Below, in pieces: positions 10,088-37,473 of a DNA stretch of 64,000 nt; positions within the stretch are counted from its first letter, which is position 1; every line of letters starts with the position of its first letter. The stretch lies in IMG/VR virus record IMGVR_UViG_2541047715_000004; one strand, given 5' to 3'. Source of the DNA: a virus. Taxonomy: Duplodnaviria > Heunggongvirae > Uroviricota > Caudoviricetes. The notes under the pieces were generated by a model, which searched no databases, had not been told where the DNA came from, and saw only the letters and a list, made by a program, of their open reading frames with translations. A program made the translations under genes and the position numbers.

Positions 10088-10104
10088 GAAAACAATTTGT
10101 TTTG
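10088..10104 (+). promoter_or_regulatory. conserved palindrome GAAAACAA-N-TTGTTTT (family 1)
   Basis: About 23-39 bp upstream of ATG 10127; recurs at 10817, 23557, 23608, 26416, 26900, 27804, 28568, 37428, 37455. Confidence 0.5.
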
Positions 10105-10126
10105 ACAAATAGCAAAAGGAAAACAC

Positions 10127-10552
10127 ATGTTAGGTTTCTTCAAAAAGAAAACTCGTAAAGCTGTTATCGAAGTCAAAAAAATGGAGAACCGTGATGCGGT
10201 TGAAGCCACCGTGTGGGGCGGGTACATGATCTCCTATGCCAACGGTACATGCGATGCAAAAGAAATTTCCATTCTTGAGAAAACAATTGCAGCTCTGCCT
10301 GCATTTTCTCCTTTTGCTGGTGAGATTGCCCAGATGAGCGCCAATATCCGCGCTCAATACGAAGCCTCACCGCGCCGTGCTAATGCCCAGGCTTTACGTG
10401 AGCTGGCGGATGTGGCCGGGACTGATGATGCAGTAGATGTACTGTGTCTGTGCCTTGATATTGCCGACCAGGACGGCATTGATGAACCAGAAGAGCAGGC
10501 GCTGAAAAAGATCGCCCAGGCGCTTCAGTTGTCACTGGATGCTTATCTCTAA
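10127..10552 (+). CDS. TerB-like domain protein
   Basis: Pattern resembles tellurite-resistance TerB; C-terminal DQDGIDEPEEQALKKIAQALQLS. Confidence 0.5.
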   Translation: MLGFFKKKTRKAVIEVKKMENRDAVEATVWGGYMISYANGTCDAKEISILEKTIAALPAFSPFAGEIAQMSANIRAQYEASPRRANAQALRELADVAGTDDAVDVLCLCLDIADQDGIDEPEEQALKKIAQALQLSLDAYL

Positions 10553-10710
10553 TGCTTGAGAGATTCCGGCTTGTGACCGTCATTGCTCTTCTGGTGATAG
10601 CGGTGTTGGTGGATTTTACGGGAAAGATGATGTCTGTCATTTCTGATGGCGTCCTCATTGGTCTGGCGATCTACTTCGCTTATCCGCTAGTCCGTAAAGC
10701 AACGTGTTAA
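10552..10710 (+). CDS. small hydrophobic protein (52 aa), coupled to TerB-like gene
   Basis: TAATG stop/start overlap; not in ORF track because shorter than 60 aa. Confidence 0.35.
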   Translation: MLERFRLVTVIALLVIAVLVDFTGKMMSVISDGVLIGLAIYFAYPLVRKATC

Positions 10711-10711
10711 T

Positions 10712-10745
10712 GACAAGGGCCAAATGGCCCTTGTGTTTCGTTGAC
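10712..10745 (+). terminator. rho-independent terminator
   Basis: CAAGGGCCAAATGGCCCTTG followed by TGTTTCGTT. Confidence 0.55.
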
Positions 10746-10816
10746 CGAAATAGAGAGTTTGCACCTTTACGTTTAGCTTGCTCCCCTTTTATGCCACATC
10801 ACAATAAAGCCAATAA

Positions 10817-10833
10817 GAAAACAACTTGTTTAA
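10817..10833 (+). promoter_or_regulatory. family 1 palindrome (GAAAACAACTTGTTTA)
   Basis: 17-33 bp upstream of ATG 10850. Confidence 0.45.
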
Positions 10834-10849
10834 GCATTAGGAAAAACAC

Positions 10850-11419
10850 ATGTGCAAGAAATGCAAAGCGATAGCTGATGAACAAAACGCCTTATTCGAA
10901 GAAATGGATGCTAATGAACTGGTCAAAATGTTAGCCATTCTTCGAGGAATAGAAGACGTTTCCATATTTGAGAGAGTGGTTACAGCACTTAATTTTGAGT
11001 CCACCTTTGAAGAGCCAACTCAGGTTGTAGCTTTAGCACATCATTTCGGTGTTCATTATCTTGCTGAAAAAGAGCGCGCTGATAAGTTGCAGGCGACTTT
11101 GGATATGGTGAGCGAGACTCAACGAACTGATGACACTAACAAGAGTGAGGCGATTATTGCCAGCAAAGATCGTGAAATTGCTGGGCTTAAATCCTCTCTA
11201 ACGATGTTGATGTCTGCGTTCAATCTTATGTCTTCTCAGGCGGGTTATAAAATGCCATCACTAAACAGCGATGATCCGATGGCCGTTCGTCAGCTTTTGG
11301 GAGCAATGGCCGACCAACTCGACGACACAAAGAGTCGCCTTGAAGACATGATGCGTGAGTTAAGCCATCGACATAACCTCGCAACACAACCACACAAAGT
11401 CTTTCAAAGCTCTAATTGA
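10850..11419 (+). CDS. hypothetical protein
   Basis: 189-aa ORF preceded by family 1 palindrome and AGGAAA RBS. Confidence 0.5.
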   Translation: MCKKCKAIADEQNALFEEMDANELVKMLAILRGIEDVSIFERVVTALNFESTFEEPTQVVALAHHFGVHYLAEKERADKLQATLDMVSETQRTDDTNKSEAIIASKDREIAGLKSSLTMLMSAFNLMSSQAGYKMPSLNSDDPMAVRQLLGAMADQLDDTKSRLEDMMRELSHRHNLATQPHKVFQSSN

Positions 11420-13010: not shown

Positions 13011-16000
13011 CTATATCTGCCCACCTACTCCTTTGAACTTTTCAATAAACGTGACGATTTTCTGGAAAACGGTCTGTTTTTTCGTTTTATATTGCGGGTT
13101 TAACGGACTAAGTTTTGGTAATGTCTCGTTTAATTCTGTGCCATTTTCGGTGGCGTATTCGCGTTTTAAAGACGTGCGAATATAGCGTTTCGCCGCCTCT
13201 TCATTGAGATTTTCTTCTTTTATCAATGCTTCTGCTTCACGTTGCTGTTCGCGTTGAGCAAACGTAAAGAATGCCTCAATGATACTGGCTTTGTCTGGTA
13301 AATCATCCAGGTTCGTTTGCTGAATAAAATCGACCACCAGGCCCTCTTTCGCCCGGTTCCCCAGGCTTGAACGAATTAAGCGTTTGACCTCTTCGATCAT
13401 TTCGCCCTTGCCTTTATTTTGTCTGTTGTGTTCGAAAATCAGTCCAAGGATATAATCCAGGTTTATTTCCTGAGACTTCAGCAAATCGACCTCAAAAACT
13501 ACGTCATCCCAGTCAGTGGTTGATTTCTCTTTTTTCTCAGCTTCTTTCTCACGGCGCTGCCAGTCGCGAATATCGTTATAGGCAGAACGATAATCCTGAA
13601 TCTTGCGTTCAGCAGGGAGACGAATTGTTTGCAATTCAGCGAACTTTTCATCATCCACATAATGTTCTGCTTTGAATTTTTCTACCGCAACAGGATCGCT
13701 AAGATCGATTTGTTGCAGGGCTTTCAGCGTGGCAAATTCATCATAGTTTTGCAGGATGTTCTCGGCACGCAGGTATTCACCAAACAGTTTTACGAAGTCT
13801 TTCTTCTCTTTTTCACTTTCAATACTGGCAGGGTCAGGGAACCGTTGTTCCAGTTCTGAAACTACTGCCATAAAGCCGCGTTTAGCTTCACCAGTGGCAG
13901 CATCTGTAAAGCCTTCCATATACTCAGCATAACTCTTTTCTAACACCACATTTTTAGTATTTTTATCACCAAACAGCGTTATGGCATCAATGGTTGAGCG
14001 TTCCAGATCCCGAAAAGTGACGATGTTACCGAAGGTTTTAGTAGCGTCATAAATGCGGTTGGTACGGGAGAATGCCTGCATCAGGCCGTGAAAACGCAAG
14101 TTTTTATCGACGAATAGCGTGTTCAATGTTGGAGCGTCGAAGCCGGTTAAAAACATCCCAACGACAATTAACAGATCGATATCCTGATTTTTAACCCGTT
14201 GGGCTAAATCACGATAGTAGTTCTGAAAACCGTTACTGTCGGTGCTGAAGTTAGTTTTAAAATAGCTGTTATACTCACGAATTGCAGCGTCAAGAAACTC
14301 TTTAGCACTGCTGTCCATTGCGCTGGTATCAAAAGTTTCATCGGAAATTTCACCAATGGCATTTTGTTCTTCATTGGCGGCAAAGGAGAAGATTGTTGCA
14401 ACACGCAGCGGTTTATAGGTAGCCGATTTATTAGCTGCTTCCTCTTGTAACCGTTTAAACGTCGCGTAATAGGCTTTCGCGGCATCCACGCTACTCACTG
14501 CCAGCATGGCATTAAAGCCTTTGGAACCTGGGAAAGTACGGTGGGTCTTCTGGCGGAAGTTATTCAGAATATATTGCGTAATTTCCTGTATACGCATGGG
14601 ATGAAGAAATGCCTGCTGATTTTCAGCCGCACTCAGTTTTTTCTCGTCGGTTTCTGTCTCTAAAGATTTAAACTGTGGCCGCACATCGTTGTAGTCCACC
14701 TTGAATTTGAGCACTTTTTCATCACGAATCGCATCGGTAATTACATACGAATGCAATTCACGACCAAATACGCTGGCGGTCGTTTCTGAGCCTAAGGCGT
14801 TTTCCGGGAAAATAGGTGTGCCGGTAAAACCAAACTGATAATAGCGTTTGAATTTCTTCTTCAGGTTTTTCTGCGCTTCTCCAAACTGGCTGCGGTGACA
14901 TTCATCAAATATAAACACCACTTGCTGATTGTATACAGGCAGGTCGCTTTCTGCTTTCATCAGGTTATTAAGTTTCTGAATAGTGGTGACGATAATTTTG
15001 TTATCGTCCTTATCCAGATTGCGTTTAAGACCTGCGGTATTTTCCGAGCCGTTGACGCTGTCTGGCGAAAAACGCTTATATTCATTCATGGTCTGGTAAT
15101 CGAGGTCTTTCCTGTCGACCACGAAGAAGACTTTATCAATAAAGTCCAGCTCTGTTGCCAGACGCGCGGCTTTAAAGCTGGTGAGGGTTTTACCTGAACC
15201 GGTAGTGTGCCAGATATACCCACCGCTTTCCGGTTTTGACCAGTTCTTCGCTGTAAAGGAACTCTTAATTTTCCACAGAATGCGCTCAGTGGCGGCAATC
15301 TGGTACGGTCGCATCACCAGTAGCGTTTGGCTAACATCGAATACGCTGTAGTTCACTAAGACATTAAGCAGGGTATGTTTCTGGAAAAAGGTGGCGGTAA
15401 AGTCTTTGAGGTCTTTAATCAGCGTGTTGTCTGATTTCGCCCAATTCATGGTGAAGTCAAAACTGTTTTTATCGCGCTTTGTCGTGTTGGCAAAGTAACG
15501 GGTATCGGTGCCGTTGGAAATGACAAACAGTTGCAGATACTTAAACAGAGAATTTTCGCTGTTAAAACTCTCTTTGCTGTAACGATGTATCTGGTTAAAG
15601 GCCTCACGAATCGCCACGCCGCGCTTTTTCAGTTCGATTTGTACCAGCGGTAAGCCATTAACCAGGATCGTGACGTCATAACGGTTAGCATGAGAACCCG
15701 TCTGTTCAAACTGCTGGATAATCTGCACCTTGTTGCGCATGAGATTCTTTTTATCTATCAAATAGATGTTCTCAAGACGCTCGTCATCAAAAATAAAGTC
15801 GCAAATATAGTCGATATGGATTTTACGGGTCTTATCCAGGATGCCATCGCTCGGGTTATCCAGATACTGCTCCGTGAAACGCCGCCATTCGCTGTCATTA
15901 AACACCACACCATTGAGGTTCTGAAGCTGTTCCCGAACGTTGGCCAGCATCGCCGACTGAGATTTTACGGAAATAAATTCATAGCCCTGATTCCGCAGAT

Positions 16001-16127
16001 CCTGAATCAGTTCACGTTCCAGGTCCGATTCGCTCTGGTAGCTGTCGCCTGTTTGCTCGGCTTTGATGTACTTATCAAGAACGATAAAGTTATTGGATTC
16101 AGCAATGGTGTGTGTCTGATGAGTCAT
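13011..16127 (-). CDS. hsdR: type I restriction enzyme R subunit, type IC (EcoR124-like)
   Basis: 1038 aa; Walker [13 protein letters not shown]-box FDECHRS, helicase motifs; N-terminus [20 protein letters not shown] matches my recollection of EcoR124 HsdR. Confidence 0.95.
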
Positions 16128-16248
16128 AGCGCATCCTTTGTGCCGTCTGGCAAGGGCCGGAAGGGCTTTAAGGGCGACTTCCGGCGTGTAAAAAATAGTC
16201 TCTATATAGACCGGATGTTAAGGTGATCCGGTCGGTAGCAATGGTCAA

Positions 16249-17496
16249 TTAGTTACTGATAGTTTCAGGTTTGGGAAAACTGAACAGTAAATCACGATAG
16301 TACTCGTATTGTTTCTGGCGCAACTCGATTTCACGCGGAAGACCTTCGGTGATGGAATTGGTCAAAGCATCAAATTTATCCAGTAATTTCACTATTTTTT
16401 GTTGTTCAACTAGCGATCTTTCAGGAGAATCAGGAAATGGTACTGGTATCATAAGTTTTCTTAAGTTATCATTATAAAGTCTTTTAATAGTTCCACCTTC
16501 AGATATTCCCCATTTTGCTATTTTATAGAAATAGAATAAATATTTATTTAAAACTATTTTTTCATTATTTTCAATCCAGACAATATTGCTATCCTGGAAA
16601 TATGATTCCCTACCATCAAATATAACAGTCCTGCCGATGGTCCCACTGGCAGAAATCAATACTTCGCCAACTTTAGGATAACTATATTTTTCTTTAAATT
16701 CATTAAATAGTTTTCTAGATATATAGGAATCGGGTTCCTTACCAAATGTCCCAATTTTATAAAATGGAATCTCTCCCTCAGAAGATGTTTGTGATTTTAG
16801 GATTCGTTTACACATACGAACTTCACCAATTTCCCCCAAAGCTTTCCACTCAACCTCACCCTCTTTAAAACTCAACAACTGGTCGCGATAGTAGTTGTAT
16901 TGTTTTTTACGCATGCTAAGCTCAGCGGTAAGCTCAGCGGTAAGTGCAGTAAATTTATCCAGAATCCTGACGATTTCAGACTGGATAGCCAGCGACTTTT
17001 CCGGGTTGTTGGGGCAAGGGATGGGGATAAGTAATTTACCTATATCTTTAGCATACAAATGATAAACAGTAGAACCTTTAACCATTTGCAATATCTTTTT
17101 TTTGTTATTTATTATGAAATTACTTAGATATCTACCATCAACACCAGAGCATCTAATAATCAAAATATCGCCGCCTAAAATAACGCCACTTTCTTGAATG
17201 CAACTAGCTGTAGCCAAACCTCTTGGTGTAACGTCTGACGTTGGCATTAGAACATCATTTTTTTCAGATAGAATTGACTCATTGATTGCTTGGTTTGTTT
17301 TTGAGCATACTTTGTCAATTATGGGACCATAATGAGTGAAAAGCTCACCGTAATGAATACAATATCTATTGCCATCTGGAGTTATTTTTTCTTTAGGTAA
17401 AGACTTCCCTTTTAAAAAAGTTGCTAATTTATTTAATGCTACCCACTCAACCTCAGCCCCATCCAGCAGTTTTTCCAGATAACTCAGCTCGCTCAT
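16249..17496 (-). CDS. hsdS: type I R-M specificity subunit, type IC with two divergent TRDs
   Basis: Conserved N-terminal, central ([29 protein letters not shown]) and C-terminal ([41 protein letters not shown]) regions; AT-rich variable TRDs. Confidence 0.95.
16918..16941 (-). repeat. 2 x 12-bp tandem repeat in hsdS central region, encoding TAEL-TAEL
   Basis: + strand AAGCTCAGCGGT twice, then a degenerate third copy. Confidence 0.85.
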
Positions 17497-19055
17497 GCCT
17501 GTACCTCGCTACCTTCAATCTCAGCAACAATCGCATCAATATCTTTACGCAACTGGTCGATTTTGCTGACCGTGGTTTTCAGCTCAGCATTCAGCTCAGC
17601 GATATCGATAATTTCGCGAGTATCTTTCGCTTCCACATAGCTGCTCACCGACAGGTTATAGTCATTCGCGACAACAGTCTCAAACGCAACAGATTTCGCC
17701 AGATGAGCAACATCTTCCTTGCTGGCAAATACCTGCATAATCTGTTCGATATGAGCATCGGTCAGAATGTTGTTGTTAGTCTCTTTTTTGAACAGTTCGC
17801 TGGCATCAATAAACTGAACTTTGGTATCCGTTTTATGTTTAGACAGCACCAGAATATTGACGGCAATAGTGGTGCCAAAGAACAGATTCGGTGCCAGTGA
17901 AATCACGGTTTCGACATAGTTATTGTCGACCAGATACTGACGGATTTTCTGCTCCGCGCCGCCACGGTAAAAAATGCCTGGGAAGCAGACAATCGCAGCG
18001 CGACCTTTGGCCGAAAGATAGTTCAGCGCATGTAATACAAACGCAAAGTCAGCTTTGGATTTGGGGGCCAGAACGCCAGCCGGGGCAAAACGTTCATCGT
18101 TAATCAGCGTCGGGTCATCGCTGCCAATCCATTTCACCGAATACGGCGGGTTAGAAACGATGGCATCAAACGGTTTTTCATCTCTGAAGTGCGGCTCAGT
18201 CAGTGTATTACCCAGCTTGATATCAAACTTGTCGTAGTTGATGTTGTGCAAAAACATGTTCATACGCGCCAGGTTATAGGTCGTATGGTTGATTTCCTGA
18301 CCAAAAAAACCTTCTTCGATGATATGGTCATCAAACTGTTTTTTCGCCTGCAACAACAGCGAACCGGAGCCTGCTGCCGGGTCGTAGATTTTGTTAACGT
18401 GGGTCTGCCCGTGCATAGCCAGTTGTGCAATCAGCTTAGAGACGTGCTGCGGTGTAAAGAACTCGCCGCCGGACTTACCGGCATTCGCCGCATAGTTAGA
18501 AATCAGGAACTCATAGGCGTCACCGAACAGGTCAATCTGATGTTCATGGAAGTCACCAAGTTTTAGCCCTTCAACCCCTTTCAGAACCGCAGCCAAGCGG
18601 GCATTTTTATCTTTAACGGTGTTACCCAGGCGGTTACTGGTGGTATCGAAATCAGCAAACAAACCTTTGATGTCAGCTTCTGAAGGATAACCGTAAGCAG
18701 AACTTTCGATAGCAACGAAGATGCTGTTTAAATCTGCATTCAGTCTGTCATTAGTATTTGCTTTCGCAGCTACGTTGCAGAAAAGCTGACTGGGGTAGAT
18801 GAAGTAGCCTTTAGTTTTGATGGCATCGTCTTTAATGTCATCAGTAATTACGCTGTCATCCAGTTTCGCATAACAGATACTGTCATCACCGGCTTCAATA
18901 TAACTGGAAAAATTTTCGCTGATAAAACGGTAAAAAAGCGCGCCCAAAACGTACTGCTTAAAATCCCATCCATCGACTGAACCCCTGACATCGTTAGCAA
19001 TTTGCCAGATCTGGCGATGAAGCTCTGCACGTTGTTGAATACTTGTCATTTTCAT
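17493..19055 (-). CDS. hsdM: type I R-M N6-adenine DNA methyltransferase subunit
   Basis: 520 aa; motif [14 protein letters not shown]; stop overlaps hsdS start (ATGA). Confidence 0.95.
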
Positions 19056-19407
19056 CCACTTATTTCAGGTTTAAGTAATTGGATGTGATTCTACAGCAAC
19101 TTGGATGCTTTAGCAGTTCGGACATTAGGTAACGAATGACCTAATTAGAGCTTTTTGGAAAAGCGGTATTGTCGGTGCGATTTTAGCTATGTCTGGGTGT
19201 GCGATGGTGCAATACAATGACGGTGAAAAGGTTAGCATCCAGTTCGATGGCTGGTATTGGCTTGGATAGCCTGCCAAAAAACGCAGATAAAGCCTGTCAG
19301 CAATACGGAAAGTCTAAAGCTGTATATCTGCATAGCGCGAACGCTAACCCTCATCTTGCGCCTGGTACGGGTGTTCAGAATACCATCTGGAAATGTGAGC
19401 CTTAAAC

Positions 19408-19659
19408 ATGAGCAACTGGAACATAGCAGCCAAAAGCCAGGAAGAAAGGAATAAAGTTAACGTTGACCTGGCTGCCAGGGGGGTTGCCTACAAAGAGCGA
19501 TTGAACATACCCGTCATAGCGGAACAGGTAGCCCGTGAGCAACCTGAGAACCTGCGCACCTATTTCATGGAACGGCTACGGCACTACCGGCAGTTAAGCC
19601 TCCTGCTGCCAAAAGGAAACGATCCGGTATATCAGAAAGAAGATATAGCCAAAAAATAA
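19408..19659 (+). CDS. hypothetical protein
   Basis: 83-aa ORF between hsdM promoter region and UmuD'-like gene. Confidence 0.4.
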
Positions 19660-19719
19660 CGCGCCACCAGACGAGCGCAAAGCATCGCGCTATTGCACAC
19701 TTCAAGCATCTTTAATGTA

Positions 19720-19739
19720 TACTGTATGGATAAACAGTA
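19720..19739 (+). promoter_or_regulatory. LexA operator (SOS box)
   Basis: TACTGTATGGATAAACAGTA fits CTGT-N8-ACAG; 19 bp upstream of ATG 19758. Confidence 0.65.
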
Positions 19740-19757
19740 CTCTGAGGTGAAAACGCT

Positions 19758-20147
19758 ATGGGCTTCCCTTCTCCTGCGGCGGATTATGCTGAGAGCCGTA
19801 TTTCTCTTGATCAGCAGATAATTAGACATCCTTCAGCGACCTACTTCATGAGGGCAGCTGATAGTCATCATCGTGAGGGAATATTACAGGGTGCATTGCT
19901 GGTGGTCGATTCCTCACTTACCCCGGTTGATGGTTCTCTGCTTGTATGCGCTCTGGATGGGGAATATCGCGTAAAAAGATACCGGAAGTACCCACGTCAG
20001 CATCTGGAGGATTTAAGAACCGGTAAGAAGGAAGCATTGCCAAAGGATGACGATGGATGCACGGGCAGCAATGCCGTGTTTGGTGTGATCACTCACATTA
20101 TCAACGACGCAAGAAGTGGCGAGTTTGATGATTGTCCCGTGATGTAG
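19758..20147 (+). CDS. UmuD'-like S24 peptidase-fold protein lacking the cleavable N-terminal arm (HumD-like)
   Basis: Starts MGFPSPAADY, equivalent to UmuD residue Gly25; Ser (ADS) and Lys (RVKRY) dyad positions conserved; GAGGTG RBS. Confidence 0.7.
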   Translation: MGFPSPAADYAESRISLDQQIIRHPSATYFMRAADSHHREGILQGALLVVDSSLTPVDGSLLVCALDGEYRVKRYRKYPRQHLEDLRTGKKEALPKDDDGCTGSNAVFGVITHIINDARSGEFDDCPVM

Positions 20148-20158
20148 GAGAACTGATT

Positions 20159-20184
20159 AGGCGGTGCAATGCACCGCCTTTTAT
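20159..20184. terminator. bidirectional terminator between convergent UmuD'-like gene and apbC
   Basis: AGGCGGTGCAATGCACCGCCT followed by TTTAT. Confidence 0.6.
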
Positions 20185-23475: not shown

Positions 23476-23494
23476 TTAAACAACCTCTGTTCGC

Positions 23495-26415: not shown

Positions 26416-26434
26416 AGAAAACATGTTGTTTAAG
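26416..26434 (+). promoter_or_regulatory. family 1 palindrome (GAAAACATGTTGTTT)
   Basis: Upstream of ATG 26444. Confidence 0.45.
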
Positions 26435-26443
26435 GATTGCTTT

Positions 26444-26773: not shown

Positions 26774-26783
26774 ACCTAACCAA

Positions 26784-26806
26784 AGCCAGCATTGCTGGCT
26801 TAATTT
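26784..26806 (+). terminator. putative terminator
   Basis: AGCCAGCATTGCTGGCT followed by TAATTT. Confidence 0.4.
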
Positions 26807-26899
26807 CTCTATAGCCGCAGGGAAGAACCTGCATATCGCTCATGCACCTGATCATTATGCTTTGTAGCCGTTTTCTTACTGGTATTATTTACGCCATTG

Positions 26900-26916
26900 A
26901 GAAAACAAGTTGTTTA
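26900..26916 (+). promoter_or_regulatory. family 1 palindrome (GAAAACAAGTTGTTT)
   Basis: Upstream of ATG 26927. Confidence 0.45.
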
Positions 26917-26926
26917 CGGAGTTGTG

Positions 26927-27238
26927 ATGAAAAAATCATTGGTTCTTGGTCTGGACAAAGACCAGAAGAGAAAAGAGAAGCCTGCGCTGGTTGCTCAATT
27001 AACTTTGCTGGACATCGTTGCCAATGGAACCTCTATTCGTCTGTTCCGTGAAACAGCGGTGTCTTTCGATAAAAACACCTTTACTCGTTATGTAATGAAT
27101 GTTCGTCGCCAGCGTGGAAAAGGCTGGATGGCATTTCAAAGAATGTGGCCGGAACATCAGCTCGAACTGGCTTTGATGGAAGTTAACCGCGTGGCCCAGC
27201 AAGAAATTCAGAGAGCATCAGTGATGGCAATAGCCTGA
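26927..27238 (+). CDS. hypothetical protein
   Basis: ATG 26927; track start at 26897 is TTG inside the palindrome. Confidence 0.45.
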   Translation: MKKSLVLGLDKDQKRKEKPALVAQLTLLDIVANGTSIRLFRETAVSFDKNTFTRYVMNVRRQRGKGWMAFQRMWPEHQLELALMEVNRVAQQEIQRASVMAIA

Positions 27239-27271
27239 TAATGTGCAAGTGGTAATTAGTCGACAGTACGA

Positions 27272-27300
27272 CAGCCCCGCCATCCTTACGGGGCTTTTTT
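27272..27300 (+). terminator. rho-independent terminator
   Basis: AGCCCCGCCATCCTTACGGGGCT followed by TTTTTT. Confidence 0.65.
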
Positions 27301-27364
27301 GTATTGTAAGTACATACTTACGATCATAGAATATAAAAATAACCAATACACTACGGAGAGTGAA

Positions 27365-27760
27365 ATGACCGTTAAACGCGAAAAACTGACTGTTGATGTT
27401 TACTATGCCTCTGAAACCGCCGAAGGTAAGAATGTGGCAAAAATCACCGTTGTTACGTACAACACCGAAACTGGTGCCGAAGTACAGGCCAGTACGATCG
27501 TGCGTAAAGGTGATGCCTCCGGCGGCGAGTACGCGACTCAATACCAGTCCATTCTCGATGCAACTGACCCGCTGCTGCTGAAAATCGAGAACTACTTCCG
27601 CCAGGTTGATGAAGAGGTGTTTGAAACCATGATGAATATGGTTAACACCGTATTCGCCTCCAACCTGAATACCAACACTACCTGGATTGGTCAGTACGGC
27701 CTGCGCATTACCTCTGGCATTCCTGCCGACACCTTAATCCCTGAAAGCGTATTCGCTTAA
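27365..27760 (+). CDS. hypothetical protein
   Basis: ATG 27365 with GGAGAG RBS. Confidence 0.45.
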   Translation: MTVKREKLTVDVYYASETAEGKNVAKITVVTYNTETGAEVQASTIVRKGDASGGEYATQYQSILDATDPLLLKIENYFRQVDEEVFETMMNMVNTVFASNLNTNTTWIGQYGLRITSGIPADTLIPESVFA

Positions 27761-27769
27761 TCCTCTTTA

Positions 27770-27796
27770 AATGGCGCGTAAACCGCGCCATTTTAT
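27770..27796 (+). terminator. rho-independent terminator
   Basis: AATGGCGCGTAAACCGCGCCATT followed by TTATT. Confidence 0.6.
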
Positions 27797-27803
27797 TAAG
27801 CCC

Positions 27804-27820
27804 GATAACAATTTGTTTTC
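27804..27820 (+). promoter_or_regulatory. family 1 palindrome (AACAATTTGTTTTC)
   Basis: Upstream of ATG 27878. Confidence 0.45.
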
Positions 27821-27877
27821 TGCCTTATCTGATTTGTGAAAATGATTTCACTGAAGCAACTTAATAAGGAAACCATC

Positions 27878-28252
27878 ATGGGACTTGATATCTATATCGA
27901 GACACAGCCTAAAAACGATCTGAATAACGAGGCATCCAGAAAGCAGGTTGCTTACTTCCGTAAGTTCAATGCGCTCGTTGGGTGGATGGAGCGCAACGTA
28001 GGTGAAGTCGAAAATTGTGAGCTTTTAGAATTAACGATGAATGACATTTGTTTTCTGAAGGCTCATTTGATGCACATAAACGAAAGCAATTGCGAAGAGT
28101 ACTTGCCTACCCGGGAAGGTTTTTTCTTCGGCAGTCAGGAGTACGATGAAGGTTACTGGCATGACGTGGATAAGCTGAAAAAACTTGTGGAAGACCTGAT
28201 CAGGAACCACGACTTTCACAATAACAGACTGACCTTCTGCGCCTGGTGGTAA
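27878..28252 (+). CDS. hypothetical protein
   Basis: ATG 27878 with AAGGAAACC RBS. Confidence 0.45.
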   Translation: MGLDIYIETQPKNDLNNEASRKQVAYFRKFNALVGWMERNVGEVENCELLELTMNDICFLKAHLMHINESNCEEYLPTREGFFFGSQEYDEGYWHDVDKLKKLVEDLIRNHDFHNNRLTFCAWW

Positions 28253-28567
28253 ATATGGGCGATTTCAAGAAACGCCTGAAGGAAAGAGCCGAGATGGTCA
28301 GAAAGCAAAACGCCTCTTCTGTCATCAGATACGCAAGGCAGTTTAGTCGCAACAACAAATCAGTTGAGGAAAAGATCCTTAGCGTAATCGTGCGATAATT
28401 ATTAAGGCCATCAGCATTGGTGGCCTTAAATGACCATCTTGTTTCCCGCAGGCTAAAAACACCAACCTCTTACCTCCAGGCAACCGACAAACCCACCTGT
28501 TCCCGTCCGGCTACCGCAACTTTCCACTTTGACGCCTTATTCGTACAACGATAATTAACGCCAACAA

Positions 28568-28581
28568 GAAAACAATTTGTT
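28568..28581 (+). promoter_or_regulatory. family 1 palindrome (GAAAACAATTTGTT)
   Basis: 22 bp upstream of ATG 28603. Confidence 0.45.
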
Positions 28582-28602
28582 ATTTACGATAAGGAATTAA
28601 TC

Positions 28603-29085
28603 ATGAATTTTATCGCTACTGTAAACGCACCCGCACATGGCAATATCGCTGTAACGTTCTCTGACATTGAAAAACGAGTACTTGGTGCATGGCGCGACAA
28701 TGAGACGGTAGAACTGTCAGCACAAGAAAAATGCATTATTGCACGCGACATCATTGGCAATCGTCGTTACTCGCGGGTATTTGAGAAAGCGTATGTGGTA
28801 AATTCTGGATTCGGAACGTTCGTCTTTCCGGTGCGCTCCGGGCGATTCTGCCAGTCCAAGCTGATTGAGTTCGCTACGCAGATTTCTGTCTGGATTAAAA
28901 CTCAATCGTCGTTCAAATTTTCCGACGATGAAGCAGTATCGCAGGGGATGCGGATCGCCAACAATGCGATTAAATGCAAAAACATTACGTATACCGCTGG
29001 CGTTGATACATGGAAACTGTTTTGCGCTAACTTTATGCTGAATGTATACGCAAGCAACCGCATCCACATCCTTGATGGCGTGTAA
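28603..29085 (+). CDS. hypothetical protein
   Basis: 160-aa ORF with AAGGAA RBS. Confidence 0.5.
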   Translation: MNFIATVNAPAHGNIAVTFSDIEKRVLGAWRDNETVELSAQEKCIIARDIIGNRRYSRVFEKAYVVNSGFGTFVFPVRSGRFCQSKLIEFATQISVWIKTQSSFKFSDDEAVSQGMRIANNAIKCKNITYTAGVDTWKLFCANFMLNVYASNRIHILDGV

Positions 29086-29093
29086 CTGAGAAG

Positions 29094-29117
29094 AGGGCCA
29101 GAAACGGCCCTTTCTCT
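29094..29117 (+). terminator. putative terminator
   Basis: GGGCCAGAAACGGCCC followed by TTTCTCT. Confidence 0.5.
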
Positions 29118-29133
29118 ATAGCCACCAGCTGCC

Positions 29134-29214
29134 GCAGGGAAATTTTCAGAAACGGCGAGGAACGTATTCATGAGCCGACGGGGAACGGCCAGGATTTTTT
29201 CGGGAAACGGCTGC
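29134..29214 (+). repeat. second iteron-like cluster (GGGAAACGG family)
   Basis: cagggaaatttt, cagaaacggcgagg, gaggaacgtattc, cggggaacggccagg, cgggaaacggctgc. Confidence 0.55.
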
Positions 29215-29701
29215 ATTCGCCTTTATGTAGAAAAAACATCGGGAAGCTGGTGGAATCCAACCAGCGGTTGTCGGACAGGTGAGCGGGGAAAATTATGATG
29301 ACTTTCGTCGCCTGAGACATCCAGATTTCTTTCGTAGCGTAATCACATATGTGATTAAGTGGTGTGATTATGTGAAAAATCACGCGCACATAATACGAGA
29401 GCGGATACGGAACAAAACAAAATGCCGATCCGCGCCGACAATTAAACGCGGATCACATAGCAAGAATAAAAGCCAATGATTAACCATACACCATAACGCA
29501 ATATAACGCGATTTAAGCGCGTTAATGCGCTAAGTAATGGGTATGTACTGGTAAGGATATAAAAGCGCGTCTATGGCGTTATTTTGGCGCTTATTTTTAT
29601 GTTGTTGGTGTGAGTCAAAGACAATAAAAAAAGCGCCATCATTGGCGCGTTATGGTGGAAGTATTGGAAACGAAAAAAGCGCCCATAGTGGGCGCTCGAT
29701 T

Positions 29702-29932
29702 TTATTTATGTAAACTGATTTCAAATCCCATTTCTACAAACGCTTTTAACATTAAAAATATATCAGCGTCATTCATGTCTGCTTTTTTTCGCTCCTGGTC
29801 GCTCAATAAGTCAATTTTGCGCGTCGTTTCATCTATAAGCTCGACTGCGCGCCCAGCGTAACCAGCGATCCCAGCGATGCGATTAACAAAATATTCATTA
29901 CGTACGTTAACGCCAGCGATAAGAATAAACAT
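29702..29932 (-). CDS. hypothetical small protein
   Basis: AAGGAG RBS; minus-strand terminator GCGCCCACTATGGGCGC plus T6 right after stop. Confidence 0.45.
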   Translation of the reverse strand: MFILIAGVNVRNEYFVNRIAGIAGYAGRAVELIDETTRKIDLLSDQERKKADMNDADIFLMLKAFVEMGFEISLHK

Positions 29933-29979
29933 GATTAAGCTCCTTAAAAGCGCCCATAGTGGGCGCAAGATTCCATTAA

Positions 29980-30630
29980 TTACGCTTTGAAAGCATCAGC
30001 CAGATAGTTATAGAAATCATTTTTAATGAAGCGATATTGCTGCGTACCAGCTTTTGCGCTTCCCATTCCTTTGACTTTCTCAACAAGTCCAAGACGTTCG
30101 CAAAGATTGATCAACTGGTTGGCTTGAGTATAGCCAGCGTCCAATTTAATTTCGCACGCTTTTTTAGCTTCATTCATTAAATCGAAAACAGCGCCATTGG
30201 TGAACGTGTCGATCTCGTCGTTAATCATATCGATTAAAGCGAATACACGAGATCCTGACATATCAGCGATGGAATAAACGCATTTACCAGCTTTAATTGA
30301 TTTAACCAGATAGACCAGTTTTTCCAGTGAATAACTATTAGTCATTGCATCACGGAAAAATACTTCTGGCGCTTGTTTACTTGCTTTGATCGCATAGTAG
30401 AAAACAGAGCATAATTTTTCGTCTTCTACTGCGTTCACAACGTTGTTGATGAAGTAAGCAAGTTTAGTGGTCGCAGCTTGCATGTTTGCTTTGTCTGCTT
30501 TTGTGTGCGTACCATTTTTATAATGTTCGTTATATGTTTGAGTTGCCAGATCTGCTTTTTCGCGCAGCTCGTCGGATACAATGGCAGCAGCTTCAATGAT
30601 GGATTTTTTAGAAATGATAATGTTAGCCAT
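29980..30630 (-). CDS. hypothetical protein
   Basis: 216-aa ORF followed by the same GCGCCCACTATGGGCGC hairpin. Confidence 0.5.
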   Translation of the reverse strand: MANIIISKKSIIEAAAIVSDELREKADLATQTYNEHYKNGTHTKADKANMQAATTKLAYFINNVVNAVEDEKLCSVFYYAIKASKQAPEVFFRDAMTNSYSLEKLVYLVKSIKAGKCVYSIADMSGSRVFALIDMINDEIDTFTNGAVFDLMNEAKKACEIKLDAGYTQANQLINLCERLGLVEKVKGMGSAKAGTQQYRFIKNDFYNYLADAFKA

Positions 30631-30927: not shown

Positions 30928-31449
30928 TTAAAACGGAAGGATTCGTTCAACCCAATCGAAGAAAATAAGTATTTTTCTACCGTCTTCCAACTTAAGTGTG
31001 ACTAGACAGGCGTCAACGCCATCTGACGTTCCCTCAATTTCGCGACCGTCTGCCATGTAGACCCTTATAGATTTGCCGTTTTGGTAAGCCTGACGACATA
31101 TCTTAAAAAAGTCACGACGTGATGGCTGATTAACCATCTGTTCATTGTTTAGCGTTAGTCGACCTGTGAATGAAGTGTCAACCTCTTCTATGCCCGACTC
31201 AATTGTGCTAATGCGCTCAAGAGGGAGCCTTATACGATTTGTGTTGCTAAGCGGATCTGGTGTGAGGTTCAGCTTATTTCTTGCGCTCAATAGCCCGTAG
31301 ACATACATGCAAAACACTTGGCCGTCTTCGAGAGTGACTCTTACAGGAAATTTTGCACTCCGCCAGAAGAGCAAGGTGCGCTCAGCATGTTCGTAGTCTC
31401 GCGGCCAGACTTCAGCCGGTATGCCGTAGGTGATGTCCAATGTTCTCAT
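30928..31449 (-). CDS. hypothetical protein
   Basis: 173-aa ORF, overlaps upstream gene by 4 nt. Confidence 0.45.
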   Translation of the reverse strand: MRTLDITYGIPAEVWPRDYEHAERTLLFWRSAKFPVRVTLEDGQVFCMYVYGLLSARNKLNLTPDPLSNTNRIRLPLERISTIESGIEEVDTSFTGRLTLNNEQMVNQPSRRDFFKICRQAYQNGKSIRVYMADGREIEGTSDGVDACLVTLKLEDGRKILIFFDWVERILPF

Positions 31450-32039
31450 TCTGATACTCTTAGAGGTGTTTTCAGCAACCCAAATTTAAATTCTTTGTTA
31501 CCAACGACAAAGAAGGGAACCTCAACATAGATTTTTTTATCGACGGATTTAGAGTTAGCTGTTTTATGTATGTCACGAACGATACGTTTTGAGATATTTT
31601 CATCGATAAACAATACCTTTCCACTTGTATTCCCTTCAGCCTTGGCGTAAGTAACGATAGGCTCTTCATTGCCAACCCTAATGTTTACTTGGCAACCTGT
31701 TGTAGCCATTTCATCACAGTAAAGTGTGCCGTCTTGAACTTCCAAAACAATTCCAGATGGCTTCATGGCTTCGTCAGAGCTTACATTAACGTTTTCTGGT
31801 ACAGCGGTCCCGTTAATTTGCAACCGTAATCTTTCTTTTCCTGCATTAAGTATTGTTTCTTCTGCGTTATCTGAGAATCTGAACCAGACTGGTTGAATCA
31901 GACCTCGTGATTCGTATTTTAGTACGTCTTCAGAAGTATACATGCTGTACGTTTTTTGCATGTCGGAGACGATATCTGACAACGCATTTGCGGAAAATGA
32001 CGAGAGGTATATACAAGCAAGAAGTAACGAACGTTTCAT
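31446..32039 (-). CDS. hypothetical secreted protein
   Basis: N-terminal signal-peptide-like MKRSLLLACIYLSSFSANA. Confidence 0.5.
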   Translation of the reverse strand: MKRSLLLACIYLSSFSANALSDIVSDMQKTYSMYTSEDVLKYESRGLIQPVWFRFSDNAEETILNAGKERLRLQINGTAVPENVNVSSDEAMKPSGIVLEVQDGTLYCDEMATTGCQVNIRVGNEEPIVTYAKAEGNTSGKVLFIDENISKRIVRDIHKTANSKSVDKKIYVEVPFFVVGNKEFKFGLLKTPLRVSE

Positions 32040-32219: not shown

Positions 32220-32498
32220 TTACGGCAGTTTGCTTAGAATTTGCTCTAAATCTTCCTTTGTCATATTAGAGTTCTCATAGATGCGCATGATTTTCTCACG
32301 AGCCTTAGCAGAGACTCCAACGGCAGATGAAACTTTGTCAAATTCAGCCATTGTCATCGCTTCCAGAATGGTATTGATAACTTCAGCCTTAGACATTTTG
32401 ATGTTTTTTTCTTTTAGTTTCATTTGAAACTTTCCAAGTTTGTCATTGGCCTTATCGGACAATGCCACCTGACAATAAGTTGTTTTCTTTTCGCTCAT
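32220..32498 (-). CDS. hypothetical protein
   Basis: 92-aa ORF immediately downstream of helicase. Confidence 0.4.
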   Translation of the reverse strand: MSEKKTTYCQVALSDKANDKLGKFQMKLKEKNIKMSKAEVINTILEAMTMAEFDKVSSAVGVSAKAREKIMRIYENSNMTKEDLEQILSKLP

Positions 32499-34823: not shown

Positions 34824-35491
34824 TGACCAAAAAGTTTGAAATCGTATATCGCGACCCGGCAGATCTTATTCCCTATGAGATGAATGCCAAAAAGCATGAT
34901 GAACAGCAGATCCGAGATCTGGCCGCAGCCATTAAAAAGCGCGGATTTGACCAGCCAATTACGGTCGATAAGAACGACGTAATTATTACTGGCCACGGCC
35001 GCCGTGAGGCTGCAATTTTTGCTGGACTTGAGCGCGTGCCGGTTATTGTTCGCGATGATCTGAGTGATGACGAGGTACGTGCAAAGCGCCTTGAAGATAA
35101 CCGACTTGCCAGCATTGATTACGATGCAATTAAGCTACAGAAAGAGCTTGAGTCGCTTGTTCTGGACGATATCGAGGTTTTCGGCTTCGAAGAGCGTGAG
35201 TTGAATGTTCTCGTTGGCAGTATGACAGAAGAAATGGACACCGACTCGCTAGTTATCGATCTTGGCGAAGAAACTAAACGACAGAAGGATGAACACACCG
35301 AGATCAGTCGTGAAGTTGCAGCGGAAGAAGTACGTGTTGTCGACGTATTGGGCTTTAAAACGCTCCCTGCTGGCTCTGCCATTGTTGTTGGTGATTTGCT
35401 TGCCCATATGGAAGAAATGACGGGAGAAAGCGGGGTAGACGCATTTGTGGCATATGCGGAGAAGATCTCTTCCGGGGAGATGGCTGCATGA
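34823..35491 (+). CDS. ParB/Srx-like N-terminal domain protein (second copy)
   Basis: ITGHGRREAA box; TAATG overlap with upstream gene. Confidence 0.6.
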   Translation: MTKKFEIVYRDPADLIPYEMNAKKHDEQQIRDLAAAIKKRGFDQPITVDKNDVIITGHGRREAAIFAGLERVPVIVRDDLSDDEVRAKRLEDNRLASIDYDAIKLQKELESLVLDDIEVFGFEERELNVLVGSMTEEMDTDSLVIDLGEETKRQKDEHTEISREVAAEEVRVVDVLGFKTLPAGSAIVVGDLLAHMEEMTGESGVDAFVAYAEKISSGEMAA

Positions 35492-36153
35492 GCAAATACA
35501 TCATCAACGTATCGTTTCAGACACGCGTAAATAAAACCACGCGCACGTTGGAAATCGCTGAGTCGTTCGGGCTTGGCCTGGACGAAAAAGAGTGGACGCT
35601 TTACGACAATCTGGAGCTGGAAGTGAAGCAGGGCGATGTGGTGTACATCACCGGCCAATCCGGTTCCGGCAAATCCGTTGTGCTGCGCGAGTTGCAACGA
35701 CAGATGAAGGATGAAGGGCTGTCTGTAGCCTCCATCGATGATTTTACCTTCGATAATGAGGTTAACGTCATCGATCAGTTGGGCAAAACGACCAGTGATG
35801 CGCTTGGGTTGTTATCTATGGCTGGTCTGAACGATGCATATCTGTTTGTTCGCAAGCCTTCTGAAATGTCAGACGGCCAGAAATATCGTCTCAAGATTGC
35901 CAAACTGATTGAGTCAGGCGCTAAAGTATGGGCTGCTGACGAGTTCGGCGCTGTTCTCGACCGTGTAACCGCTCAGGTTGTGGCGTCTAACCTCCAGCGT
36001 GCCGCTCGAAAGGTTGGTGCGACGGTAATGGTGGCGACGACTCACGAAGACCTGAAGAACGCGCTGCGCCCTGATATGCAGATCACCAAGCACTACAAAG
36101 AACGCGTGAAGGTGGAATATCACAATGGTAGTCATGATGAGGTCCATTCATGA
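35488..36153 (+). CDS. ABC-type ATPase without transmembrane domain
   Basis: Walker A GQSGSGKS, signature-like SDGQKYRL, Walker B VWAADEFGAVLD; ATGA overlap. Confidence 0.6.
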   Translation: MSKYIINVSFQTRVNKTTRTLEIAESFGLGLDEKEWTLYDNLELEVKQGDVVYITGQSGSGKSVVLRELQRQMKDEGLSVASIDDFTFDNEVNVIDQLGKTTSDALGLLSMAGLNDAYLFVRKPSEMSDGQKYRLKIAKLIESGAKVWAADEFGAVLDRVTAQVVASNLQRAARKVGATVMVATTHEDLKNALRPDMQITKHYKERVKVEYHNGSHDEVHS

Positions 36154-37040
36154 CGGACATCATCATTAAACGCTACCGCCCTGAAGAGTTTCCGCGTCAT
36201 CTGGACTTTCTGGAGCGAATGACTGTTACAAAGGGAACTGTAGAGGACTGGCACGCTCTTAAATCGCTTCACTACAAAACAGACGGCAAACCTTTCGCGC
36301 CAACATACTATCGCTGCGAACTGGATGACCGTCTGGTGGGCGTCGTGGTTATGGCTTACCCGAAACTTCTGCTGGCACCTCGCCATCGCATGTTTCCTAA
36401 GTTGAAACCAACTACCAATACCACCGTGGCTAACCAGTACTGGGGTCGGTACGTGAATAACAACTTTGCGGTGATCAGCCGCTCAGTTGTGGATACTCAG
36501 TACCGTGGCGTAGGCGTCTCTTATCGAATGATTAACCTGGTTAGCAGGATGCATGACCGGCCAATCATTGAGATCCAGTCATCGATGAGCAAATACAATC
36601 CCTTCGCCATGAAAGCAGGGTTTAAGTTCATCCGCCCTGAGCGACCGAAGAGCTATGAAAGTGCACTGCGTGTATTCCAGCGCCATTTCCGTTCCGACCC
36701 GGGTGATAACGAGGCGATCGTCAAAGAGTTGTTCGCAATGAGCGAGTCTCGTCGTCGCCGTGCACTGCGTGATCTGGTGGCGGACTACCACAAGAACAGT
36801 TCCCTGGCAAAAGCTGGGCGGAATCGTGGCACGACGATTCAGGACATTGCCGACAGTCTGGTGGACGAGGCCAGCATTGTGAAGCTGCTCAAGGACATTC
36901 ACAACCTGAGCTTTACGTCTCCGTTGTATGGTGTGTACCGAAACCCTGACTTTGGCCGTCGACTGCCTGACACGCTGCCACTGCTGGCATTCGACAAACA
37001 ACCTTTGGATAAACCGTTAGAAATTGCTTTACCGGCATAA
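36150..37040 (+). CDS. hypothetical protein with possible GNAT acyltransferase motif
   Basis: VISRSVVDTQYRGVGVSYRMINLV resembles GNAT motif A; ATGA overlap with ATPase gene. Confidence 0.4.
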   Translation: MTDIIIKRYRPEEFPRHLDFLERMTVTKGTVEDWHALKSLHYKTDGKPFAPTYYRCELDDRLVGVVVMAYPKLLLAPRHRMFPKLKPTTNTTVANQYWGRYVNNNFAVISRSVVDTQYRGVGVSYRMINLVSRMHDRPIIEIQSSMSKYNPFAMKAGFKFIRPERPKSYESALRVFQRHFRSDPGDNEAIVKELFAMSESRRRRALRDLVADYHKNSSLAKAGRNRGTTIQDIADSLVDEASIVKLLKDIHNLSFTSPLYGVYRNPDFGRRLPDTLPLLAFDKQPLDKPLEIALPA

Positions 37041-37049
37041 GGATTTGCC

Positions 37050-37316
37050 ATGACGTTAACCGATAAACAAAAGGACATCATCAAAACGCTCAATCTCGGT
37101 TATGAGCGAGGTCATCTACTTGACCTGGACGAATTGCTTGAAGTTTTGCCGTACAAGACAACCAAGCAAAGTATCCAGTTCTCAATTCGCGCTCTGATAA
37201 AAAAGGGGCTGGTGGAGAAAGGGCATACGCGCCAACGCAGTGACAATCGCTATCACCGCCGGACTCTTGGGTTAACCACTTTAGGTCGAGCCAAAGCGAA
37301 GTTACTGGTGATGTAA
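37050..37316 (+). CDS. small basic protein, putative DNA-binding
   Basis: 88 aa, basic C-terminus. Confidence 0.4.
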   Translation: MTLTDKQKDIIKTLNLGYERGHLLDLDELLEVLPYKTTKQSIQFSIRALIKKGLVEKGHTRQRSDNRYHRRTLGLTTLGRAKAKLLVM

Positions 37317-37340
37317 TCGGTCTGGGAGCTTATTTAAAGA

Positions 37341-37393
37341 CCTGCTTCTGTATATAAATAATAAGTAACTTATTAAATATATACGGAAGCAGG
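37341..37393 (+). repeat. second copy of long hairpin with same 16-17-bp arms as 7620-7678
   Basis: CCTGCTTCTGTATATA ... TATATACGGAAGCAGG, same arm mismatch as copy 1. Confidence 0.6.
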
Positions 37394-37454
37394 CTTCGTA
37401 AGACATGCCAGACCTAATTAAACACCCCAGAAAACAAGTTGGTTAGCAGATGCA

Positions 37455-37473
37455 GTAAACAAGTTGTTTTAGA
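37455..37473 (+). promoter_or_regulatory. family 1 palindrome (GTAAACAAGTTGTTTTA), plus half-site at 37428-37445
   Basis: Upstream of ATG 37510. Confidence 0.4.

Follow-up and report, generated by a model that had tools for sequence, protein, structure and literature searches.

The stretch of DNA analyzed here, called the window throughout, is the whole 64,000-nucleotide (nt) sequence taken from IMG/VR virus record IMGVR_UViG_2541047715_000004, and it belongs to an SSU5-type phage-plasmid close to phage Cyrano/pLF82 of E. coli (~97% identity). The region 22000–30000 is 94–97% identical to Escherichia phage Cyrano (pLF82), PhiR41_1, and CMS-2020a, and Salmonella phage SSU5 and the Klebsiella phage-plasmids are more distant relatives. 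In terms of the Cyrano genome, the window spans ~70.5 kb, the end of the record, and onward to ~26.6 kb; its gene order runs from nucleotide-metabolism genes through a block of small early open reading frames (ORFs), a leftward operon (helicase to FljA-like), and ParB-like genes to the terminase and structural genes. The subject of this analysis is a recurrent motif, a putative operator, whose strong 17-nt copies lie between 10088 and 37471. A copy is referred to as class A (downstream type) when it follows the −10 element with its GAAAAC end 5′ on the gene strand and as class B (upstream type) when it precedes the −10 element in reverse orientation. Scores are in bits of a symmetrised position weight matrix, with 16 bits or more defining a strong site, and the promoters and start sites are predicted from consensus. 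The copies and the elements that accompany them are as follows.

10088–10104, plus strand: copy GAAAACAATTTGTTTTG, 24.7 bits, 4 nt past a −10-like TATGTA (10078–10083) with a −35 element TTGACC at 10054–10059
10817–10833, plus strand: class A copy GAAAACAACTTGTTTAA, 23.6 bits, 16 nt before the ATG of ORF 10850–11419
23558–23574, minus strand: class B copy TAAAACAATTTGTTTTC, 24.8 bits, ending 17 nt before the −10 element, at ~−46 to −30, overlapping the −35 position
23589–23597, plus strand: extended −10 element TGAGATAAT of the predicted promoter between the copies at 23558 and 23609
23609–23625, plus strand: downstream-type copy GAAAACAAATTGTTTCG, 21.6 bits, 11 nt past the −10 element and 51 bp centre to centre from the copy at 23558
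25222–25238, minus strand: weaker orphan copy ATAAACAACTTATTTTC, 16.5 bits, in a C/A-rich non-coding stretch, with no standard −10 element at the usual spacing
26397–26433, plus strand: predicted promoter unit of extended −10 element TGCGATAAT (26397–26405), 11 nt, and copy GAAAACATGTTGTTTAA (26417–26433, 19.9 bits)
26880–26917, plus strand: predicted promoter unit of extended −10 element TGGTATTAT (26880–26888), 12 nt, and copy GAAAACAAGTTGTTTAC (26901–26917, 25.3 bits)
27804–27843, minus strand: class B unit of copy GATAACAATTTGTTTTC (27804–27820, 23.6 bits), 17 nt, and extended −10 element TGTGAAAAT (27835–27843)
28547–28584, plus strand: predicted promoter unit with −35 element TTGACG (28529–28534), −10 element GATAAT (28550–28555), 12 nt, and copy GAAAACAATTTGTTATT (28568–28584, 20.3 bits)
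32471–32487, minus strand: weak copy, 16.1 bits (13.1 in Cyrano), in codons 4–9 of a 92-aa ORF
37430–37471, plus strand: two tandem copies at 25-bp spacing in the terminase-operon leader (37430–37446, 20.0 bits; 37455–37471, 23.6 bits)
37472–37500, plus strand: terminator-like hairpin GAGCGC-ATGGAC-GCGCTC followed by a T-rich run, directly past the second of these copies and before the ribosome-binding sequence and ATG of terS (37501/37510)

The copy at 10088 overlaps the predicted start site and lies 22 nt before the ATG of a TerB/TciA-like ORF (10127–10552; Pfam TerB). A Shine-Dalgarno (SD) sequence adjoins the copies at 23609 (GGAG, with the ATG of the DUF5983 ORF 23637–23936 11 nt on), 26417 (AAGGA, likely ATG at 26444), and 26901 (GGAG, ATG at 26927), and the copy at 28568 is followed by an ATG at 28603. 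For the unit at 27804 the likely SD sequence and ATG are at 27866 and 27878, leaving the copy outside the predicted 5′ untranslated region (UTR) of that gene. The annotated starts of the Cyrano genes CYRAN_105, 108, and 110 fall inside the palindrome or the −10 element (the corresponding pairs of positions in the window are 26423/26444 and 27842/27878), and the ATG further downstream with a proper SD sequence appears the more plausible start of these genes. The orphan copy at 25222 is kept at the equivalent place in SSU5 and in Klebsiella pJN2-26, and the weak copy at 32471 is possibly a product of chance or of the coding sequence in which it lies. The terminase-operon leader has two copies in SSU5 as well and one in pJN2-26, and the hairpin at 37472–37500 is conserved in both relatives, which suggests that the late operon may also be under termination or antitermination control in its leader.

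The motif is far more frequent than expected by chance. An approximate search of the window with up to three mismatches to GAAAACAANTTGTTTTC finds the motif 13 times, where 100 dinucleotide shuffles give an expectation of 0.70 and none of them reached 13. Neither of the two refutations proposed in an earlier note on this DNA, a chance frequency and an equal occurrence in coding regions, is borne out. The ten copies listed in that note are all present to within 0–2 nt (10088, 10817, 23558, 23609, 26417, 26901, 27804, 28568, 37430, and 37455), and the matrix scan adds those at 25222 and 32471. Matrix scores in the window are bimodal, with 12 sites at 16–25 bits and everything else at or below 11 bits. 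The strong sites lie on both sides of a block of host-like genes, as had been noted before, and the same scan finds none before 10000, between 11000 and 23500, or among the structural genes beyond 37471. The complete genome of Cyrano has 18 sites of at least 16 bits, compared with 0.26 in Markov-1 random genomes. Coding sequence does not hold the motif equally often, since 15 of these 18 sites are intergenic in a genome that is 13% intergenic (binomial P = 3e-11). Of the three "coding" sites, at least two appear to reflect mis-set starts, with a better SD sequence and ATG downstream of the site than at the annotated start.

The conserved unit, GAAAACAAnTTGTTTA, is asymmetric, and only its 13-bp core, AAACAAnTTGTTT, is palindromic. 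The description of the motif as a perfect or near-perfect palindrome of 15–17 bp is imprecise: a perfect-palindrome search of the window returns no perfect 17-mer, and in 67 distinct copies the outer pairs 1/17 and 2/16 lack complementarity in most cases (A-A at 2/16 in 40 copies). Mirror pairs 3–8 are complementary in 53–66 copies.

The placement of the copies was analyzed in 12 SSU5-like sequences with 123 sites, the counts being of sites with an extended −10 element in range. In class A, 20 sites begin 11 nt and 6 sites begin 12 nt past the −10 hexamer, which usually lies within an extended −10 element (TGnGATAAT), and the copies occupy ~+6 to +22. In class B, the interval from the end of the copy to the −10 hexamer is exactly 17 nt in all 30 cases, and the copies occupy ~−46 to −30; their last five bases and the T that follows (TTTTCT) fall at the −35 position. 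Removal of redundancy leaves 19 class A and 21 class B units, and in every one of the former the SD sequence starts 0–8 nt past the motif. Several promoters have both copies, and their centre-to-centre distance is then always 51 bp (e.g., 23558/23609 in the window, 88317/88368 and 93660/93711 in SSU5, and 16813/16864 in pJN2-26). Spacing that is exact to the base pair on both sides of the −10 element favours a role at the DNA level, where the bound factor would touch RNA polymerase or compete with it. It is to this element, and not to the start codon, that the spacing is constant; the earlier note had placed the copies at a fixed distance of 10–40 bp before start codons, and the distances in the window prove to vary between 9 and 63 nt, three of the ten copies being 57–63 nt away.

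In 5′ to 3′ order, the predicted promoter unit consists of TTAAACAAnTTGTTTTC, TgCCTTtTcTnatt, TGnGATAAT, AAcaCCAacAA, GAAAACAA(nTTGTTTA), an SD sequence, and ATG, and the consensus of the whole unit reads gCC-TTAAACAAnTTGTTTTC-TgCCTTtTcTnattTGnGATAAT-AAcaCCAacAA-GAAAACAA(nTTGTTTA)-SD. The G-extended, better-conserved half of the palindrome always faces the promoter, the distal halves are strongly conserved too, and many class B promoters have only the half-site GAAAACAA downstream. A simple sigma-70 −35/−10 scan did not call these promoters because their −35 elements are weak, and an analysis anchored on the extended −10 element was used instead. A TgCCTTtT box is also conserved between the upstream copy and the −10 element, at ~−29 to −22 (e.g., 23575–23582 and 27821–27828).

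The earlier note had offered a dimeric regulator's operator or a 5′-UTR RNA hairpin as the function of the motif. The former agrees well with the palindromic core, which is conserved in sequence, the spacing from the −10 element, and the presence of the motif at ~20 promoters. The latter, as a self-folding hairpin, is not supported: the motif with 3 nt on either side folds at −0.2 to −1.8 kcal/mol, no better than shuffled sequences (z of −0.9 to +0.6 for downstream-type copies), no compensatory changes are present among the 67 distinct copies, in which every departure from complementarity is one-sided, and the whole window has no match in Rfam at gathering thresholds. In addition, class B copies lie outside the 5′ UTR of the following gene because they are upstream of the −10 element. 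It is possible that the downstream copies act as a protein-bound, unstructured RNA operator, since the element encodes a homologue of FljA, and this alternative is weighed below.

The motif is retained where the surrounding sequence is not. SSU5 has 21 sites at orthologous places (the terS leader pair, parA, helicase, cobT, nrdB, and the small-ORF block) with diverged flanks, pJN2-26 has 13 sites within 40 kb, and the E. coli element L112, whose FljA-like protein is 56% identical, has nine sites of at least 14 bits in 20 kb, seven of them of at least 16 bits. A scan of IMG/VR with an exact 16-mer returned many SSU5-like contigs carrying multiple sites; contigs of a divergent lineage (L122, L154, L170, and L212) have up to 10 sites in 11 kb with unchanged geometry, and plasmid CP027615 also carries the motif. 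Among 46 distinct regions upstream of parA, which are otherwise unrelated beyond ~−45, 45 share an identical copy, GAAAACAAGTTGTTTCA, and the remaining one differs at the unconstrained central base only. Altogether the motif is found in elements from Escherichia, Salmonella, Klebsiella, Enterobacter, and metagenomic lineages. Seven similar palindromes in ~130-bp tandem repeats on a 207-kb IMG/VR contig (L195, 8338–8720) were set aside, as they come from an apparently unrelated large virus with "hr"-type repeats; its ORFs look eukaryote-virus-like on inspection (RING-finger type), so that the resemblance appears coincidental.

The genes behind the sites are the TerB/TciA-like gene, several small ORFs, the DUF5983 ORF, parA, the replicative helicase gene, cobT, nrdB, CYRAN_58, and the terS leader. 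The sites precede early, replication, nucleotide-metabolism, and accessory genes, and they are lacking at structural and lysogen-expressed genes; the regulon is not purely the early/middle one that the earlier note suggested, because parA and the leader of the late terminase operon carry sites too. In the published RNA sequencing of the LF82/Cyrano lysogen, in which the background median is 9.8, the genes just downstream of sites are mostly near background (terS 7.1, cobT 7.8, CYRAN_58 5.7, nrdB 12.9, CYRAN_101 7.5, and helicase 21; PMC9928086 S1 Table). Induction of Cyrano by ciprofloxacin is 39-fold.

Repression in the plasmid-prophage state would agree with the silence of promoters whose extended −10 element is good and whose −35 or +14 position is overlain by a conserved site, and the palindrome is probably a DNA operator of transcriptional repression in that state. 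The operator would be embedded in ~20 near-identical sigma-70 promoters with an extended −10 element, one copy lying over the −35 position (~−46 to −30) and the other at ~+6 to +22, and a protein bound there would act by blocking the binding or the escape of RNA polymerase. Paired copies 51 bp apart, or about five helical turns, would face the same side of the DNA, and cooperative binding is conceivable. The most likely arrangement is a dispersed-operator regulon under one element-encoded putative repressor, which would keep the lytic-phase promoters off while the element is a plasmid-prophage.

Several proteins of the element were considered as the binder, and the window encodes three of the candidates.

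30928–31449, minus strand: FljA-family gene (PF03614, full length, E = 1.4e-68), candidate RNA-level regulator
32220–32498, minus strand: 92-aa ORF, homologue of CYRAN_117, ribbon-helix-helix-like by eye
37050–37316, plus strand: 88-aa ORF, homologue of CYRAN_123, winged-helix-like by eye, 84–100% conserved

Any particular assignment is tentative at best, and our own guess falls on a protein encoded outside the window, the homologue of CYRAN_29. This 119-aa protein is encoded directly after a 222-aa ParA (Pfam) at 29975–30334 of Cyrano, where it is annotated as "RelE/ParE putative toxin"; from its position and sequence pattern it looks like a ribbon-helix-helix centromere-binding protein of the ParG/omega type. 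The promoter of the parA/CYRAN_29 operon has a −35 element TTTACA, 17 nt, and a −10 element TAGGCT, with the motif 13 nt past the −10 element (~+7). CYRAN_29 is expressed at 89 in the lysogen (PMC9928086 S1 Table). Its identity is 91–100% in 80 viral loci and at least 90% in 736 of 797 PLSDB plasmids, and a segment IKSRTMSxEDE...FTRSDVIRAAI, which we read as the strand and second helix of a ribbon-helix-helix fold, is invariant between lineages that are 48–49% identical overall. Among the candidates, CYRAN_29 would fit an invariant operator best. The 92-aa ORF, whose Cyrano counterpart CYRAN_117 is expressed at 114 in the lysogen (PMC9928086 S1 Table), was rejected as a poor fit, as its putative DNA-contact strand residues vary between lineages. 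The 88-aa ORF, immediately upstream of the terS leader copies, and the highly conserved ParB-like proteins both show background expression in the lysogen. The annotated repressor CYRAN_45 was rejected as a universal binder on the grounds that it is lacking in SSU5 (whole genome) and in the stretches of pJN2-26 and L112 that were fetched, all of which bear the motif. In plasmid H74, the gene of the ParA partner is a remnant cut by IS5 and is uninformative.

A number of observations weigh against the reading of the palindrome as a repressor's operator or against CYRAN_29 as its binder. The site-bearing gene parA is expressed at 49.8 in the lysogen, ~5-fold over background (PMC9928086 S1 Table). 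The fixed spacing could partly stem from the shared descent of duplicated promoter cassettes, and the promoters themselves are predictions from consensus with weak −35 elements. At many promoters the downstream half-site GAAAACAA stands alone, to which a symmetric dimer would bind poorly. The motif stays the same where all of the candidate regulators have diverged strongly (to 48% identity for CYRAN_29, 36–38% for the FljA-like protein, and 33% for the 92-aa ORF); a phage repressor and its operator would not usually behave in this way, and a host factor is conceivable. No match to CYRAN_29 exists in Pfam or the PDB, and its monomer model, at a predicted local distance difference test (pLDDT) score of 64, is of low confidence, with only helices after a disordered N terminus; such low confidence might be expected of an obligate dimer.

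A regulator acting on RNA would be the FljA homologue, which would bind the copy at +6 to +22 as unstructured A-rich/U-rich 5′-UTR RNA and block translation, possibly in addition to a DNA repressor. In Salmonella, FljA imposes a translational block on fliC mRNA, as T4 RegA does on T4 early mRNAs. The protein in the window is 35% identical over 168 aa to bona fide FljA of the Salmonella hin-fljB-fljA locus. No structure of a PF03614 member is present in the PDB; the AlphaFold model and fold searches point to two tandem Sm/Hfq-like domains and supersede an hhalign comparison of the FljA halves with each other and with Hfq/Rof, which was not significant. Among 50,697 phage records, the gene occurs in SSU5-like elements only, apart from two sub-5-kb fragments (one of which is a fljBA locus), and it is retained in Klebsiella elements, although K. 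pneumoniae is not known to have flagella. The constant SD sequence just past the downstream-type copies and the many promoters that retain only GAAAACAA beside it would suit such a regulator, as would an 8-mer, CAAGTTGT, that the Salmonella fliC leader has in common with the centre of the motif just 5′ of the SD sequence. In fliC leaders from ~100 Enterobacterales genomes, however, the resemblance is limited to this 8-mer in the Salmonella type, which scores only 1.6 bits with the motif matrix, and the E. coli leader differs further. The upstream-type copies, all 30 of which sit at exactly −46 to −30, are outside the predicted 5′ UTR and would have no role on RNA, and single-strand recognition needs no strict conservation of a palindrome. 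The homologue is also among the most variable of the conserved proteins, at 75% identity between the window and Cyrano where its neighbours are at 98–100%, and the version at 36–38% identity, in a lineage with the identical motif, lacks the WPRDY motif. Its expression in the lysogen (LB) is modest, at 18 against the background of 9.8 (PMC9928086 S1 Table). On balance, we consider an RNA-level operator, the foremost rival of a DNA operator, unlikely, and we are equally doubtful of the broader proposal that the FljA-family protein is a tandem Hfq-like global translational repressor of ~10–20 phage mRNAs, of which Salmonella FljA would be a domesticated single-target offshoot.

Two further explanations would dispense with an element-encoded repressor. 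The motif could be an intrinsic part of a phage promoter class, read by RNA polymerase itself or by a factor of the element that activates transcription or appropriates sigma, with the palindromic look and the spacing owed to promoter function and cassette duplication; the parts recognised would be the promoter-proximal halves (TTGTTTTC upstream and GAAAACAA downstream) and the TGCCTTtT box. Conservation over the whole ~90-bp unit, beyond the palindrome, is consistent with this, as are the promoter-facing orientation of the better half and the coincidence of TTTTCT with the −35 hexamer; the box is loosely like the T4 MotA box (TGCTTtA), and the weak −35 hexamers make an activator conceivable. 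A −35 or initial-transcribed-region role nevertheless leaves the strongly conserved distal halves unexplained, +6 to +22 is no activator position, the extended −10 element renders an activator unnecessary, and a scan of proteins, which was not exhaustive, found no MotA/AsiA-like or sigma gene among those covered. We therefore hold this explanation to be improbable. Even less probable, in our estimate, is the binding of the palindrome by a host protein conserved across Enterobacteriaceae (an IHF-type nucleoid or global regulator, or another factor) that would tie the element to host physiology. It would account for a motif that is invariant across Escherichia, Salmonella, Klebsiella, Enterobacter, and metagenomic elements despite candidate regulators at 33–48% identity, and part of the motif is like the lambda H′ IHF site TATCAATTTGTTG. 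The invariant core segment of CYRAN_29 means, though, that an element-encoded binder explains this invariance as well, and the motif fits none of the host consensus sequences that we could name (LexA, CRP, Fur, FNR, TyrR, PurR, Cra, KdgR, NrdR, and Fis), in agreement with the earlier note, which recognised no host operator in it. By inspection against the asymmetric IHF consensus WATCAANNNNTTR, AAACAAnTTGTTT has A for T and T for R at two specified positions, and positions that are free (N) for IHF are conserved symmetrically; the symmetry of the 13-bp core is that expected of a specific dimer and not of IHF.

Read as a repressor's operator, the palindrome differs from those of P1 C1, omega, ParG, and KorA/KorB, and literature searches on SSU5, pHCM2, and phage-plasmid regulation found no description of the motif or of lysis-lysogeny control in SSU5-type elements. 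The arrangement resembles that of phage P1, a plasmid-prophage with a ~100-kb genome in which one repressor, C1, acts at scattered operators over lytic and accessory promoters, much as ~20 mostly intergenic sites are scattered here; the P1 operators are asymmetric 17-mers (ATTGCTCTAATAAATTT), however, whereas the motif described here is palindromic. The omega protein of pSM19035, ParG of TP228 (both ribbon-helix-helix proteins), and KorB/KorA of RK2 offer a second comparison, being small ParA-adjacent proteins that bind repeats or palindromes at several promoters of their own replicon, their own operon included. Here, too, the motif lies at the promoter of parA (~+7), and the putative DNA-binding core of the ParA partner does not vary; the lone half-sites and the variation in unit number and orientation recall the omega heptads. 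Unlike in these systems, a clustered centromere array of the motif was not found next to parA, and the targets are mostly phage lytic genes. Salmonella FljA and fliC are comparable in that the operator known there is part of a short 5′ UTR and directly precedes the SD sequence, as the downstream-type copies do, and in that a homologue is encoded in the window; they differ in that FljA has one known target in place of ~20 sites, and in that about half of the units here have a copy 5′ of the −10 element, beyond the UTR. T4 RegA is a translational repressor of many early mRNAs that acts through A/U-rich sequences at ribosome-binding sites, and its consensus from systematic evolution of ligands by exponential enrichment, AAAAUUGUUAUGUAA, is similar in composition, but RegA acts at non-palindromic sites that include the start codon, and a RegA homologue was not identified here.

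The host-like block between the two groups of strong sites (13011–23475) comprises the following genes.

13011–16127, minus strand: hsdR of a type I restriction-modification system
16249–17496, minus strand: hsdS of the same type I system
17493–19055, minus strand: hsdM of the same type I system
19408–19659: holE-like gene
19758–20147: umuD-like gene
20184–21284, minus strand: mrp/apbC-like ATPase gene, adjoining metG
21313–23475: metG

Cyrano has DUF4942/Ea22-type genes in place of the restriction-modification part of this block. A second variable slot is seen at 31446–32039 on the minus strand, where a 197-aa ORF with a signal-peptide-like N terminus lies between the 92-aa ORF and the FljA-like gene. 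This ORF has no counterpart in Cyrano, SSU5, pJN2-26, or L112, and the slot appears swappable because these elements hold different lipoprotein genes there. The stretch around the orphan copy (24990–25890, plus strand) comprises ~0.85 kb of C/A-rich, G/T-poor sequence without a convincing ORF, with three copies of a GCCATTACCCAA-type repeat, three 31-nt tandem units, the one weak copy of the motif, and two GAAAACAA half-sites, and it closes with a strong terminator-like hairpin (25860–25890); the stretch may represent an origin or a non-coding RNA. At 37340–37394, 5′ of the terS leader, there is a large inverted repeat, CCTGCTTCTGTATATA...TATATAC(A/G)GAAGCAGG, a second example of which follows the parA operon at 31157–31213 of Cyrano; the repeat may serve in packaging, in partition, or as a bidirectional terminator.

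Among the SSU5-type phage-plasmids are pHCM2 of S. Typhi and pLF82/Cyrano of adherent-invasive E. coli, together with hundreds of plasmids of Klebsiella, Enterobacter, and E. coli, and the gene of the ParA partner is found in 797 PLSDB plasmids. One invariant operator in ~20 promoters would open a direct way into lysis-lysogeny control in these elements: it would define the regulon and predict which promoters fire together on induction, and a single 17-mer provides a simple bait for the master regulator as well as a mutational test at one site. Should the partition protein prove to be the binder, the segregation of the plasmid and the silencing of lytic genes would be joined in one protein; if it is the FljA homologue, a family known from phase variation would acquire a fold and an ancestral function along with many new targets.

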